Of a stretch of DNA of 64,000 nucleotides, positions 29,658-34,677 are shown one piece after another. Source of the DNA: a virus. Location: the IMG/VR virus record IMGVR_UViG_3300045125_000040, positions 1-64,000 of that record; one strand, given 5' to 3'. Within the stretch, counting starts at the first letter, position 1. Each line of letters begins with the position of its first letter. The position numbers and the translations under genes were made by a program. Below the pieces are notes generated by a model, which saw only the letters and a program-made list of their open reading frames with translations, did not search any database and was not told where the DNA came from.

Positions 29658-30789
29658 ATGGCTCGTCGCCCAATAGTTGCCAGAAAACAGAAAACAGTCC
29701 GTATAACCAAGACCGAACAATATCTGGTCAATAAAAAATACTTGGGCGACGAACCATACTTTACTACGCCTTTATCCAAGACAGACTACATAAATAGTCT
29801 TAACTGGTATGGGTATATGTGTACAGTCAATGATGCACGTGAATATATACTTGAATATTTGATAAAAGTCAAACGTGAAAAAGATGTCAAAAAAATCAAA
29901 GCATTATCAGATAGTGAAATTCCCACAACTCTTGCGTGGATTTCACGTATGCTTACACGGGATTTTGTCTTACCTGTAGAAGCAAAAGAATACCTTGACC
30001 ATAGACTAAAAGAAATTACCAAGAGTTATAAAGAACCAATAAATAATACAAAAGAAGAACCAAAGATCTCAGTAAGAGATCGTATGAAAGAAAGGTTCCA
30101 TGATATAATGGGCGAAATAGAGGGACTTATTGATGATTATATGAATGAGAACCAAGAGTTTTCATTATATAATTGGTTACAAAGCAATAATATTCCCGCC
30201 GCATATGCTACTTCAATTATCAATAAGCTAACTCCAGTATTAGATGAATTAAAGGAAGCATACAATACCAAAGACGAACAGCTTAAAGAAGCTTATAGAA
30301 ATTATTCAAAACCAAAATTAAAAACTCTTATTGACTTTTATCAAAATCTATGTGATGATGTATCCAAGTATTCTGGTGTGGTCAAGAAAACCCGTAAAGA
30401 CCAGAAAGCCAAGGACTGTTTCTGTTGAGAAAAAGATTAAAAATCTTAAATGGCAAAAAGAAGACTCAACTTTCAAGATTGCATCGGTTGATCCTTCTAA
30501 GATTGTCGGAGCACAAGAATTATGGACCTTTAATACGAAATACAAAACTCTCACGGTCCTCCGTGCGTTGGATCGTGCAGGGCTTCAGGTTAAAGGAACG
30601 TCGATTACTAACTATGATGAAAACAATTCTTTCACAAAAGGAACAGGGCGCAGAACTGAAGAATACGTCAAAAGAGTACTTGATGGTGGGAAGATTATTC
30701 TCCGCAAGATTATGGACGATATCAAAACAGATAAACCGCTGGCATACAGAATTAACGAAAACACAATACTTTTACGGACGATCAGTTAG
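29658..30789 (+). CDS. conserved T4-like-phage hypothetical protein, frameshifted
   Basis: YLGDEP..LNWYGY, IASVDPSKIVGAQELWTFNTKYK, RINENTILL across two ORFs. Confidence 0.65.
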
Positions 30790-31375
30790 AGAGAATTAAT
30801 TCTCTCTTTCTTCTCTTGGTTTCTTTTATTTTGGTTTTGGTTTCTTCAGAATGTTTTTTGCCTTTGAATGGTCCATTGCCTTTACGTAATTTTGCTTTTT
30901 CGCTTAGTTTTCTTTTATGTTCTTCTGATTTTGGAACGCCTTTTAATTTTTCACTAATTTTATTATTTCTATGATCAGAAAATATATATCCAGTCATTTT
31001 TTCGCTTATTGCTTTTTTATGTTCTTCAGATATAATTTTGCCTTTATGTGTTTTACTAATTTTAGCTTTTATGTCATCCGTGTATTCTATGCATTTACAA
31101 ATGTTTTTGTTCAACCATTTTTCGTTATATAATATTTTCATTCTTTTTAAGACTTTTATTTCCCATTCTATAGCTTTTTCTTTTCTATTAAATTTTTTTC
31201 TAATTTTTATTATATCAGGTTCACCATGTATTTTTCTGAAATTTTTAACGTGTCTAGAAGAAGTAAAATACTTGACCCAAAGATCATTTTCTGCTATAAT
31301 TTTATTTGCGTAACGAACTCCATAATACCACTTGTTTAATTTTGACCAACCTATGAGATAAGTATATGATTCCAT
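30782..31375 (-). CDS. free-standing GIY-YIG (Seg-like) homing endonuclease with NUMOD3 repeats
   Basis: YTYLIGW..KWYYGVR..YFTSS; repeated SEEHKKAISE / SEEHKRKLSE / HSEETKTKI; inserted antisense with a late promoter TATAAATA at 31402-31409 (minus strand). Confidence 0.85.
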   Translation of the reverse strand: MESYTYLIGWSKLNKWYYGVRYANKIIAENDLWVKYFTSSRHVKNFRKIHGEPDIIKIRKKFNRKEKAIEWEIKVLKRMKILYNEKWLNKNICKCIEYTDDIKAKISKTHKGKIISEEHKKAISEKMTGYIFSDHRNNKISEKLKGVPKSEEHKRKLSEKAKLRKGNGPFKGKKHSEETKTKIKETKRRKRELILSN

Positions 31376-31637: not shown

Positions 31638-32847
31638 ATGAATAAAATTATCTTATCTGCTGTAACTATCATGCTTATGGGTGGTAGTGCAATTGCTGGC
31701 GATGTTATCGCACCGCCAATCACAAAGTATGTAGAGGCTCCTATTCCTCCCAAGCGTCCAACTAATTTCGGTAAGACCGACAATCAGAAGGTTGCTCAGA
31801 AGATTCAGGACGTGACCACAAGGAAGTAAACATGAAGAAGATTATGATTGGTGTGATCGTTGCTTCAATGCTATCTGGGTCTGCTCTTGCAGCAGACCTG
31901 GAATTGAAGTGTTATGAGAACAAAGAGTTTATGAAGATCATTGATGATATGGATCTTGTTACAGTATACAATGGTCATAAGTCAGATACAAAAATGAATG
32001 ACATTCTTATGACTAAAGATCTTCGTCTTGCTACTGTAGAATACGATAAGATGTCAGATGGTAATGCTTTAACAGCAAAACAGTATTGTGTTACAGGAAT
32101 TTTGTCAGGAATTCATTTTAATGATTCTGTTGTAGAGTTCTTGTATGAAGCTCTACAGAAGGCAAAGGGACAGAAGGTATGAGTATTCTAGGACCAGATG
32201 GTGGTTTGACTTTTCCCACAGGCGGATTAGTTAAGAAGCACCCTATTGAAGATATTCGTATGGTTATGTTTTGGTAAGATGATGGTTCATCCCCAGACAA
32301 AACAAATGGTAATGGTTCCTATGCAGGATTTGCAGTATAAACGTCAGGGATCAGATGAATGGTTCTCTGTTCCTATTTTTGAAACTGAAAAGCATGATTT
32401 TAATCCGGAGGAAAAAAATGAAGAAGTATCTGCTGGTAATCCTAGTGGGGTTATCCTTTCTTAGCTTGGTTGGGTGCGCAGAATTGGCAACGGTCGTCAA
32501 GTGCTCTGTACGGGACAGTTCTGGTAGACCCTGCCAATAAGGAGCCGCTAGATTGAAGACTTTGAAAATACTCTTGACAAGTAGTCTGTTATTTGCTAAT
32601 ATAGCACATAGCTTCGGATGATATCACATGTGAAAAGGATGTCAAGAAGGATCACATTGTTCACTGTAAGACAAAGAAGGTGATGGATGTTTCGCTGGTT
32701 AGCATTAATGGTGGTGAGTGTAACGCTCCTTCATTTCACTGGCATGGTGAAGGTAAGTTCGCCTTACCAGGAACAAAAGACTGCTCTTATGTTGGTGCAG
32801 TAACATTATCAGTTGACGGACATACAAAAACATTTGCTCCGTTATGA
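31638..32847 (+). CDS. cluster of small exported/lipoprotein genes (31638-31829, 31832-32182, ~32418-32540, ~32553-32847)
   Basis: Signal-peptide-like N-termini MNKIILSAVTIMLMGGSAIA, MKKIMIGVIVASMLSGSALA, MKKYLLVILVGLSFLSLVGC (lipobox), LKTLKILLTSSLLFANIAH. Confidence 0.6.
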
Positions 32848-32853
32848 GTAAAG

Positions 32854-32980
32854 TTCGCCTTCATCACGGTAACATCTGTCTTGGGTTTGGTATCCAGATT
32901 AAAGATGCCGTATTGAGTTACGGTTCGAATAACCATTAGTTGAAAGACTATAAAACAGGTGTTACTTTGATGAAGGCGAA
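32854..32980 (+). ncRNA. putative structured RNA closed by a ~25-bp stem related to the tmRNA acceptor/IVS helix
   Basis: TTCGCCTTCATCACGGTAACATCTGT pairs with ACAGGTGTTACTTTGATGAAGGCGAA; internal hairpins. Confidence 0.55.
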
Positions 32981-32989
32981 TAAATAGAA

Positions 32990-33276
32990 TTGCCGAGGTC
33001 GTTGAGAGGAACGACATAGACACTGAGGACGTGGATTTGCGACTCCACCGCCTCCACCACAGTAACATTGGTTCCAAGGTTGGAATAAACTTGGGTAATA
33101 GCTTCTCCAAACGTCCAGTGTTACTTTGATGGGGGCGAACTAGGATCGACTGGTGTAGTAAGGGTTCAAGGAGACCATAGGCAAATATAGGTGCTAACGA
33201 TAACTTTGCACCATTTGATTACGCTCTAGCAGCATAATCATTGGGGTGGCGACTTCCCTAGAAACAGAAAAGTCGC
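32990..33276 (+). ncRNA. ssrA: circularly permuted (two-piece, alphaproteobacterial-type) tmRNA
   Basis: Acceptor piece ends ...GCGACTCCACCGCCTCCACCA (33059); hairpin intervening sequence; coding piece starts GGGGGCGAACTAGGATCGAC (33131); tag ANDNFAPFDYALAA* at 33193-33237. Confidence 0.92.
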
Positions 33277-33302
33277 AAATATTATGAAAGGATATACCAT
33301 GC

Positions 33303-33898
33303 ATGAATTTGTTTGACTTTTCTAATGATGTAAGATATAATAAGAACATAAAACAAATTAATAATTTCTACACATCAAGAGTAAAGAAGTTAAACTGTTT
33401 TTATGAAGAACATGGTGAAGGTCAGACCAGAAAAGAAACAGGTAATCTTTTCAGGATCTATTTTATTATATTTCAGAAACTATCAATCCAAATCTAGTCT
33501 TAAAAAAGAATGATTTTTTAACTGTTCCTAGTAAAAGTGGTAGATATAATCTAATAAATGTTCAAGTTGATTGGCATGTTTATTTTAATAACAAATTATT
33601 GTTTGTTTGTGAATGTAAAGCACATTTAGACAGATGTTATTTGTCACGTGCAGTCTCTGATATAAATGATATCAGAAAAGTGCATCCAAATGTGCCAGCT
33701 ATAATTTTCTGTGGACAGAGACATATATCAGAGGATTCTTTGAATTATTATAAAGAAGAATGTGATTTTGAATATTTTTTTGTTAATGAAGATAAAAAAA
33801 GATCATCTAAAACACCTTTATATAAAACATGCAATGCTTTAGATAATCATGAAATTCAAAGAGTTTGTGAACATATTAACTTTTTGTTATCTGGATAG
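33303..33898 (+). CDS. PD-(D/E)xK restriction-endonuclease-like protein, frameshifted
   Basis: VQVDWHVY...VCECKAHLD resembles a D...ExK catalytic motif; very AT-rich. Confidence 0.5.
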
Positions 33899-34041: not shown

Positions 34042-34677
34042 ATGTATTATATAGTTTATAAAATAACAAATTTAATTAATGAAAAATATTATATAGGATG
34101 TCATCAAACTGACAACCTAGATGATGGATATTTTGGTTCTGGTGTTTATCTTAAAAGAGCTATAAATAAATACGGAGTTGATAATTTTCATAAAGAAATT
34201 TTATTTTTCTGTCAAAATGAAGAAGAAATGTTTTAAAAGAAAGTGAGTTAGTTGTTGTCTCAAGTAAAACTTATAATTTAAAAGAAGGTGGACGAGGCGG
34301 CTTCGGATATATCAACAAAAACAAATTAAATAATGGCAGAAGATCCAGAAGAAACAGAAAAAAGAAGATTAAAAAATCTTTCAAAATATAGAAAACAAAA
34401 ATGTAAAGAAAAAGATGAATTAGAATTTATGAGAAATATTGCTGAGATAGGAAGAAAAACTATTTCTGAAAAATATCCTAATGGAACATGGAAAAACAAA
34501 AAACACTCAGAAGAAACGAAAATAAAAATTGGTGAAATAAGTAAGATACGTCAATTAGGTACAAATAATTCACAATATGGAACGTGTTGGATTACTAATG
34601 GTGAAATAAACAAAAAAATAAAAAAAGAATGTCTTGATATTTGGATTGAAAAAGGTTATTATAGAGGAAGAATATAG
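34042..34677 (+). CDS. GIY-YIG (Seg-like) homing endonuclease next to a tRNA gene, frameshifted
   Basis: YIVYKITNLINEKYYIGCH..YFGSG..LKRAINKYG; YNLKEGGRGG; KHSEETKIKI NUMOD3; NSQYGTCWITNG. Confidence 0.88.

Follow-up and report, generated by a model that had tools for sequence, protein, structure and literature searches.

A closed RNA hairpin was identified in the 64,000-nucleotide window (the whole stretch of viral DNA analysed) between a small protein gene, ORF55, and a circularly permuted tmRNA gene that is made in two pieces. The element carrying the hairpin is a clade-specific insertion, polymorphic for presence and absence, and its helix is a nearly perfect duplex of 23 pairs from which the tRNA-like features have been lost, with G3-U70 changed to A-U, CCA changed to UCA and no T-arm. 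Homology showed the origin of the hairpin to be the helix that closes the spacer of such a gene (acceptor stem plus extension helix), with an older type of spacer as its loop. The reading favoured here, at a probability of about 0.45, is that this spacer-derived hairpin, with the old spacer RNA as its loop, would act in cis as a processing or stability hairpin on an ORF55–tmRNA transcript, a function that we infer from sequence comparison and predicted folding. The features of the region, all on the plus strand, are as follows.

32574–32602, plus strand: sigma-70-type promoter-like site, TTGACA-17-TAATAT, with TG before the -10 element
32680–32847, plus strand: ORF55, a small protein gene by its codon-position pattern of variation
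32845–32980, plus strand: segment inserted relative to empty-site relatives, composed of the 11-nt left flank TGAGTAAAGTT, the hairpin and AA
32856–32878, plus strand: 5' arm of the hairpin, CGCCTTC, ATCA, an unpaired C and GGTAACATCTG
32856–32862, plus strand: pseudo 3' acceptor strand CGCCTTC of the 5' arm
32863–32866, plus strand: ATCA of the 5' arm, where the tmRNA has ACCA
after the unpaired C of the 5' arm, plus strand: extension-helix strand GGTAACATCTG
32879–32955, plus strand: interior of the hairpin (the W loop), 77 nt, homologous to the true tmRNA spacer of locus L007
32956–32978, plus strand: 3' arm of the hairpin, extension-helix strand CAGGTGTTAC, leader-like TTTGAT and GAAGGCG
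32972–32978, plus strand: pseudo 5' acceptor strand GAAGGCG of the 3' arm
32979–32986, plus strand: AATAAATA, a remnant of TATAAATA whose first T has been replaced by the insertion
32997–33059, plus strand: tmRNA acceptor piece, ending CGCCTCC-ACCA (Rfam RF04321, RF01849)
33060–33130, plus strand: spacer (IVS) of the tmRNA itself, 71 nt; its closing helix is the one copied in the module
33131–33285, plus strand: tmRNA coding piece, starting GGGGGCG, with the tag ANDNFAPFDYALAA

The minimum-energy fold of 32856–32978 was a closed hairpin of 23 pairs with one C·U mismatch and an energy of -54.2 kcal/mol (z -8.28), a stability reached by none of 200 shuffled sequences. Within a span of up to 300 nt, it is the strongest and longest inverted repeat of the 64-kb window. 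The plus strand of the module folded 10 kcal/mol better than the minus strand because three of its pairs are G·U. Hairpins were predicted within the W loop at 32880–32899, 32908–32923 (CCGUA/UACGG) and 32937–32950 (UAGUU-GAAA-GACUA, with a GNRA tetraloop), the last two of which had been proposed beforehand and are both present in the minimum-energy fold; an alternative stem GGUU/AACC was predicted at 32922–32934. The T-loop-like GGTTCGAAT named in the original prediction does occur, at 32922–32930, but it lacks a 5-bp stem flanking a 7-nt loop and was rejected as a T-arm, being at best a GGUU/AACC stem with a 5-nt loop. Alignment of the few distinct sequences of W, L007 and the first module of L005 yielded no consensus fold of the loop.

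The element lies 16 nt upstream of an alpha-type tmRNA gene recognised by Rfam at 32997–33237 (78.5 bits for RF04321 and 72.8 bits for RF01849). As had been proposed, both arms match the arms of the tmRNA junction (33049–33071 and 33115–33137), the direct-repeat identities being 85% and 91%. A position-by-position pair table showed that acceptor pairs 2:71 and 3:70, which are G-C and G·U in the tmRNA, are both A-U in the module, and that the module AUCA pairs perfectly with UGAU where the tmRNA junction has a C·A mismatch at the first C of CCA. The proposal that the substitutions keep base pairing while removing the CCA and the alanine G-U pair was thus borne out by the table, and the 77-nt interior, also as expected, has no similarity to the window's own spacer. 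The T-arm of the window tmRNA (33028–33048) reads GTGGA-TTTGCGAC-TCCAC, and that of relatives GTGGG-TGCGACT-CCCAC; ARAGORN calls a tmRNA in the relatives and none in the window, and the Rfam score of 78.5 bits in the window compares with 90–93 bits in the relatives.

The window is part of a virus record of 158,790 bp that is 96% complete, one ORF of which matches a baseplate wedge family. Of the words sampled from the region, a share of at most 0.43 occurred in DNA runs labelled freshwater, which indicates that these runs contain relatives and not the window genome itself. In searches of IMG/VR and of metagenome contigs, 16 contigs belonging to this clade were recovered. Four of these (L017, L263, L264 and L266; two distinct sequences) carry the exact empty site, in which CCGTTA is followed by TAAATAGAATTGCC with nothing between. 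There ORF55 runs directly onto TATAAATAG, inside which lies its TAA stop, and CCGTTATAAATAGAATTGCC continues straight into the acceptor piece; the RNA contigs X16 and X20 have the same join. The window reads CCGTTA-TGAGTAAAGTT-hairpin-AA-TAAATAGAATTGCC at this site, with boundaries that are ambiguous by 2 nt (AT), and its ORF55 ends at a TGA (32845–32847) made by the left end of the insertion.

Hairpins, single or in tandem arrays of up to three, are present in 12 contigs: one in the window, L006, L009, L011, L140 and L156 (also in L008 and L267, which are cut at the contig end), two in L004 and L010, and three in L005 and L265. Folding gave a closed hairpin for every module, with z between -3.6 and -9.2. 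The covariation looked for on the basis of the original prediction was found, with arms varying compensatorily in three self-complementary versions (CGCCTTC/GAAGGCG, CGCCACC/GGTGGCG and CGGATTC/GAATCCG; the tmRNA has CGCCTCC/GGGGGCG). In every module AUCA is paired with UGAU and 3:70 is not G·U, and every tmRNA junction has the C·A mismatch. Chimeric arms with one or two mismatches occur in the first modules of L004 and L005 and the second module of L010, which indicates that the arms recombine with each other and that pairing of the 7-bp part is not always kept.

A structure scan of about 265 loci, using the pattern of a 7-mer followed by A(U/C)CA and then UGAU, a complementary 7-mer and an extension helix, recovered 135 tmRNA junctions; pseudo-junctions appeared in this clade only, with none in reversed controls, and about 120 other phage tmRNA loci had no such hairpin. 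The genome-wide search for further copies of the arms gave a single copy in the 158,790-bp genome, and all module copies in IMG/VR and metagenome contigs lie at the same locus. A blastn search of the 'phages' collection gave no match to the element. Among cellular genomes the W pattern had no match, and the arm pattern had one chance match, in a Polynucleobacter coding region without a tmRNA. On each side, within 2 kb, is a GIY-YIG/NUMOD3 homing-endonuclease-like gene (30782–31375, minus strand; 34042–34677, plus strand), the downstream one apparently split into two ORFs (34042–34236 and 34333–34677, plus strand); their presence is consistent with a recombination hot spot. Between the tmRNA and tRNA-Arg lie ORFs (33303–33898, plus strand, phrog_10849) that are found in the window and apparently in L265, and a different gene occupies this place in the other relatives examined.

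The W loop was compared with the spacers of phage tmRNA genes. Its local alignment with the spacer interior of L007, which is distantly related and lacks an upstream hairpin, scored 44 (shuffle mean 13.9, sd 2.3), and scores of 10–14 were obtained with the other spacers of the clade. The blocks common to W and the L007 spacer are TGGTATCC, ATTAAAG.TG, AGTT.CGGTT and AATAACCATTA. The loop of the second module of L005 and L265 is 83% identical over 71 nt to the true spacer of L074; between the L005 and L074 sequences, as read by eye, one hairpin contains a compensatory change of G-C to A-U and a GUUAYC/GGUARC helix contains pair-preserving changes. Since these loops match real spacers, the upstream hairpins hold RNAs of spacer type. 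A longer W pattern was found in the clade and L007 only, the short patterns TATCC..ATTAAAG.TGCC and TTCATCAYGGTAACA gave mostly chance matches, and a search for relatives of the L007 tmRNA found none beyond L007 itself.

Six unrelated spacers occur within the tmRNAs of the clade, which do not differ in the 37 nt that open the coding piece and served as the search pattern, and which are similar further on; as judged from these sequences, the tmRNA spacer is swapped wholesale within the clade. L010 and L264/L266 share a 93-nt spacer type in which a predicted hairpin differs by a double change of C-G to U-A (UACCGU...AUGGUA versus UAUCGU...AUGAUA), a compensatory change in a non-coding spacer. 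In the 114-nt tmRNA spacer of L011 (3353–3484, minus strand) there are two T-arm-like hairpins, each with a stem of 5 bp and a loop of 7 nt (UUCAAUU in one, UUCAAAU in the other). A further hairpin stands before each of them, so that the spacer has two armless tRNA-like units, neither of which is called by ARAGORN.

Identity of the relatives to the window was 96–99% for W, 93–98% for ORF55, 90–95% for the leader, 90–95% for the acceptor piece and 84–95% for the coding piece. Five of 123 columns of W were variable, compared with 13 of 55 third codon positions in ORF55. The changes in W were three from U·G to C-G within stems, one from GAAA to GUAA (both GNRA) and one loop indel. The lower variability of W than of its neighbour's synonymous sites, together with the retention of pairing by the changes, points to selection on the RNA fold, on the strength of few events; the low divergence could instead reflect recent spread by recombination.

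ORF55 had no Pfam or PHROG match. Across nine distinct sequences its variable columns were distributed 2/1/13 over the three codon positions, with 11 codons showing synonymous changes only and four showing replacements, and by this pattern ORF55 is a real gene. It also contains GTAAGTTCGCCTT (32753–32765), a 13-nt exact match to the joint of spacer and 5' arm between modules 2 and 3 of L005 (p < 0.001), and CAGTAACATT (32798–32807), identical to the 5' arm of the tmRNA spacer (p 0.009). ORF55 may have been overprinted on older hairpin copies, or the left flank of the module may have been copied from ORF55.

The promoter-like site at 32574–32602 is the likely, predicted start of a transcript covering ORF55, the hairpin and the tmRNA. 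Contigs from RNA libraries were available as assemblies from relatives, which show presence in RNA libraries and not ends, strand, levels or processing. Those of two studies begin at 32615 and 32621, a weak hint in favour of this promoter. Contigs of two studies join ORF55 directly to the acceptor piece, which is the empty-site form, and a third study yielded one contig that connects the W loop, by way of the 3' arm, to the acceptor piece. Positions 32860–32900 and the window's own spacer are without RNA-contig cover, which carries no meaning in contigs assembled from relatives.

Of 122 phage tmRNA loci (L004–L131), 83 have the motif TATAAATA at a fixed distance of 74–82 nt upstream of the CCA end, often with TTGACA 17 nt further upstream and TG at -15/-14, and the motif looks like a combined promoter of strong sigma-70 type and T4-late type, as predicted from these motifs. 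In the hairpin clade the usual place of the tmRNA promoter is occupied by ORF55, and all seven cases of AATAAATA are hairpin-bearing loci. The window holds 10 copies of TATAAATA where 10 are expected, so that late-promoter enrichment is uninformative.

The module was then assessed against known classes of element. Its position is not that of a spacer, as it lies upstream of the whole tmRNA gene, whose real spacer is at 33060–33130; its structure is that of a spacer, with a helix that continues the acceptor stem and a content homologous to other spacers. Searches with Rfam at gathering thresholds, covering the window and 16 related loci, returned no family for the hairpin or for any spacer, and at E values up to 10 over 32500–33400 they returned only noise with E above 1. 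The idea of an undescribed non-coding RNA held in this respect, although the RNA derives from a known spacer (IVS) of a permuted tmRNA gene. For 32854–32980 there was neither an ARAGORN call nor an Rfam match, and the match to the alpha_tmRNA model starts at 32936, where it covers only unpaired, low-information leader. G3-U70 is replaced in the module by A3-U70 (GAAGGCG/CGCCTTC), and the other arm versions are Watson-Crick there too. A CCA end is absent from all modules, AUCA being fully paired with UGAU, and the place of a T-arm, 5' of CGCCTTC, is taken by the end of ORF55 and GAGTAAAGTT.

A dispersed mobile element of MITE or Correia-like type was rejected, the module being at a single locus only; inverted arms such as end a MITE are present, and the comparison of empty and filled sites leaves the 2-nt AT ambiguity and an asymmetric left flank of 11 nt. 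An intrinsic terminator was also rejected, as the stem is followed by AATAAATAGAATT with no U run and the terminator scan of the plus strand did not report it. A small protein gene within the module was rejected on the grounds that the reading frame is not conserved among relatives. By eye, an ATG overlapping the ORF55 stop opens a frame of 31 codons in the window, which a 1-nt indel shifts after codon 14 in all other W copies; the frame is without a Shine-Dalgarno motif, and in L005 the ATG is missing from the flank's second copy. RNase III requires a duplex of about 20 or more near-continuous pairs, and with 23 pairs and one mismatch the module is a candidate substrate.

A cis-acting role would operate as follows. 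The plus strand would be transcribed within one ORF55–hairpin–tmRNA precursor, in which the hairpin would act as a double-stranded processing element, a stability element or both. Either an RNase III-type cut would be made in the long duplex, or the hairpin would serve as a protective 3' hairpin for the ORF55 message and a cut would be made in the AU-rich linker AAUAAAUAGAAUU that follows it, a plausible candidate RNase E site. In both cases the messenger would be separated from the tmRNA precursor, the tmRNA's own promoter having been displaced in the clade, and release of the loop RNA would follow, whether as a by-product or as cargo. Recombination, both among the repeated arms and with spacers from co-infecting phages, would produce the arrays of one to three hairpins. 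RNase III-type sites and protective 3' hairpins have the same appearance as the module: a near-perfect duplex, two helical turns long, lying between a messenger and the precursor of a stable RNA. RNase III processing hairpins lie between the genes of phage early transcripts, for example the R sites of T7, which similarly have a duplex of about two helical turns, a single internal mismatch and a position between two functional RNAs on one transcript. Unlike the R sites, the module, a candidate RNase III substrate, has a large, structured and conserved loop. Several points count against the processing or stability role: the empty-site relatives manage without the hairpin, which is therefore dispensable; the 7-bp pairing is imperfect in the chimeric arms; W may have diverged little through recent spread and not through selection; no consensus fold emerged for the loop; and a conserved loop would not be needed by a simple stability or processing stem.

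The hairpin could also be a neutral or selfish by-product with no function for the phage, left upstream of the tmRNA when spacers were swapped between co-infecting phages at a recombination hot spot and then multiplied by unequal recombination of its arms. We regard this, the chief alternative to the cis-acting role, as somewhat unlikely. Such an origin fits the six unrelated spacers in near-identical tmRNAs of the clade, the shuffling of arms between modules, the copy number of 0 to 3 with empty-site relatives in both ORF55 sublineages, the homing-endonuclease-like genes on both sides and the confinement of the element to one locus. It is harder to reconcile with a W loop that varies less than the adjacent synonymous sites through changes that all keep the structure, including one from GNRA to GNRA, and that is still recognisably like the L007 spacer when the neighbouring small ORF has, by eye, diverged. 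The duplicate is also trimmed exactly to the helix, with two tRNA identity features gone in all three arm versions, a pattern that looks selected.

The helix may do more than punctuate a single transcript. The original prediction included a reusable processing stem that releases its loop as cargo, with the tmRNA spacer as cargo in its turn; this fits the homologies of the loops to the L007 and L074 spacers, the small genes found in spacers and the compensatory arms, and release itself would be a further, conjectural step. In its full form the spacer-excision helix would be a portable and stackable punctuation cassette, by which any loop RNA could be cut from the ORF55–tmRNA precursor, with loops exchanged between phages and between the array and the spacer; having neither the alanine pair nor the CCA, the cassette would not interfere with charging of the tmRNA. 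We consider this full form unlikely. If true, the 'throw-away' spacer of two-piece tmRNAs would be a general expression platform for small RNAs and small proteins of phages.

A related but still less probable explanation gives the stem the part of a delivery device, the W loop that of a released small RNA acting in trans or binding a protein, and the array that of extra slots beside the tmRNA spacer. The conserved blocks common to W and the L007 spacer, the presence of different loops in the same scaffold and the use of related phage tmRNA spacers as slots for selected small protein genes would all be expected of such cargo, and they are set against the absence of an Rfam family match, the restriction of W-type loops to the clade and L007 and the failure to derive a consensus loop structure.

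At the level of DNA, the element might be a palindromic recombination site, or a silent donor cassette through which tmRNA spacers are switched by gene conversion. The arms common to modules and tmRNA junction, the hypervariable spacers and the chimeric arms agree with this, but no recombinase is associated with the element, the three G·U pairs of the plus strand are A·C mismatches in DNA or on the other strand and alternate with G-C, and among the loci examined no spacer of the clade matches the module of another member except by way of L007 and L074; we therefore consider a role in DNA very improbable. The proposed tRNA or tmRNA decoy, which would titrate AlaRS, SmpB, RNase P or a host anticodon nuclease, is supported solely by the likeness in sequence between the 7-bp stem and the tmRNA acceptor stem, and is scarcely credible for a helix without G3-U70, CCA or T-arm, with its would-be ends buried in a continuous duplex and with no match from ARAGORN or the Rfam tRNA and tmRNA models.

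Two-piece tmRNAs are known in phages, among them Melnitz and the pelagimyophages (PMC9004378), and unusual spacer content has been noted, with one spacer containing a tRNA and one a repeat element (PMC11915505). The literature searched contained no description of the spacer helix being duplicated outside the gene, or of genes in spacers, an absence that such a search cannot prove. The module shares with the IVS of permuted tmRNAs (RF01849, RF04321; PMC11915505) the same closing helix, formed by acceptor stem and extension helix with the leader UUUGAU, and has a loop homologous to the genuine L007 spacer and of about 70–110 nt, within the 29–266 nt of phage spacers. Unlike the IVS, it lies outside the gene, upstream of the acceptor piece and with no adjoining T-arm, carries UCA in place of CCA and A-U in place of G3-U70, and occurs in tandem arrays of 0–3.

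The Correia repeat-enclosed elements of Neisseria (PMC2649163) and palindromes of the REP/BIME type are similar in being about 120 bp long with inverted ends of about 24 bp, in lying just after a stop codon, and in being polymorphic for presence and absence and variable in the number of tandem copies. The hairpins formed by Correia transcripts are bound by RNase III and either cut or protected (PMC2649163). In contrast to these elements, the module is confined to a single locus, both in the 158.8-kb genome and in all related contigs, has arms derived from the neighbouring tmRNA, and has no clear target-site duplication beyond the 2-nt AT ambiguity. RNAC and RNAD of T4, which together with the Correia elements are the closest analogues in function, are small stable RNAs that are co-transcribed with a tRNA cluster and whose roles are unexplained (PMC3014915); they resemble the module as small structured phage RNAs within a stable-RNA transcription unit and differ in not being copies of a tmRNA junction, and no sequence relation is expected.

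The spacers of two-piece tmRNAs are usually treated as disposable. Here the closing helix has been copied out, stripped of its tRNA marks and stacked with different folded loops, and the spacer hairpin appears to have been reused as an exchangeable RNA cassette. Because the clade copies the helix and related phages place selected small genes in the spacer, the comparison suggests that the excision helix may be a module that can be reused to make additional RNAs out of the precursor of a stable RNA. Natural variants with and without the hairpin also make this a locus at which processing of a two-piece tmRNA precursor could be tested, a question that was not addressed in the literature searched.

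Small protein genes were found inside the tmRNA spacers of related phages (the L019 type, L056, L028, L110 and others). Like the module loops, they are exchangeable content enclosed by the acceptor and extension helix; they differ from the module in that its content is non-coding and its slot has been copied out of the tmRNA gene. The spacers of L056, L028, L110/L118, L030, L071/L111, L043 and L091 (166–266 nt) contain single ORFs of 52–77 aa with a Shine-Dalgarno motif, and the L110 ORF aligned with the full profile of Pfam DUF2061, a predicted membrane protein (E 1.8e-4; 22.3 bits, below the cut-off of 23.1). A further family of 13 spacers, 159–192 nt long, comprises L019 (7610–7786), L031, L046, L052, L054, L063, L065, L087, L092, L099, L107, L116 and L130, and its ORFs had no PHROG match. 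In this family AAAGGAGATTA and a start codon come right after the CCA, and a short acidic ORF (19–25 aa) overlaps a conserved hydrophobic ORF of 38–44 aa (MKNPLV..SKWMF.AYI.WSICADI..), whose stop codon, TGA, is supplied by the conserved leader TTGATG immediately preceding G1. Within the closing helix, the 3' end of the spacer is paired to the Shine-Dalgarno motif, giving a hok/mok-like layout.
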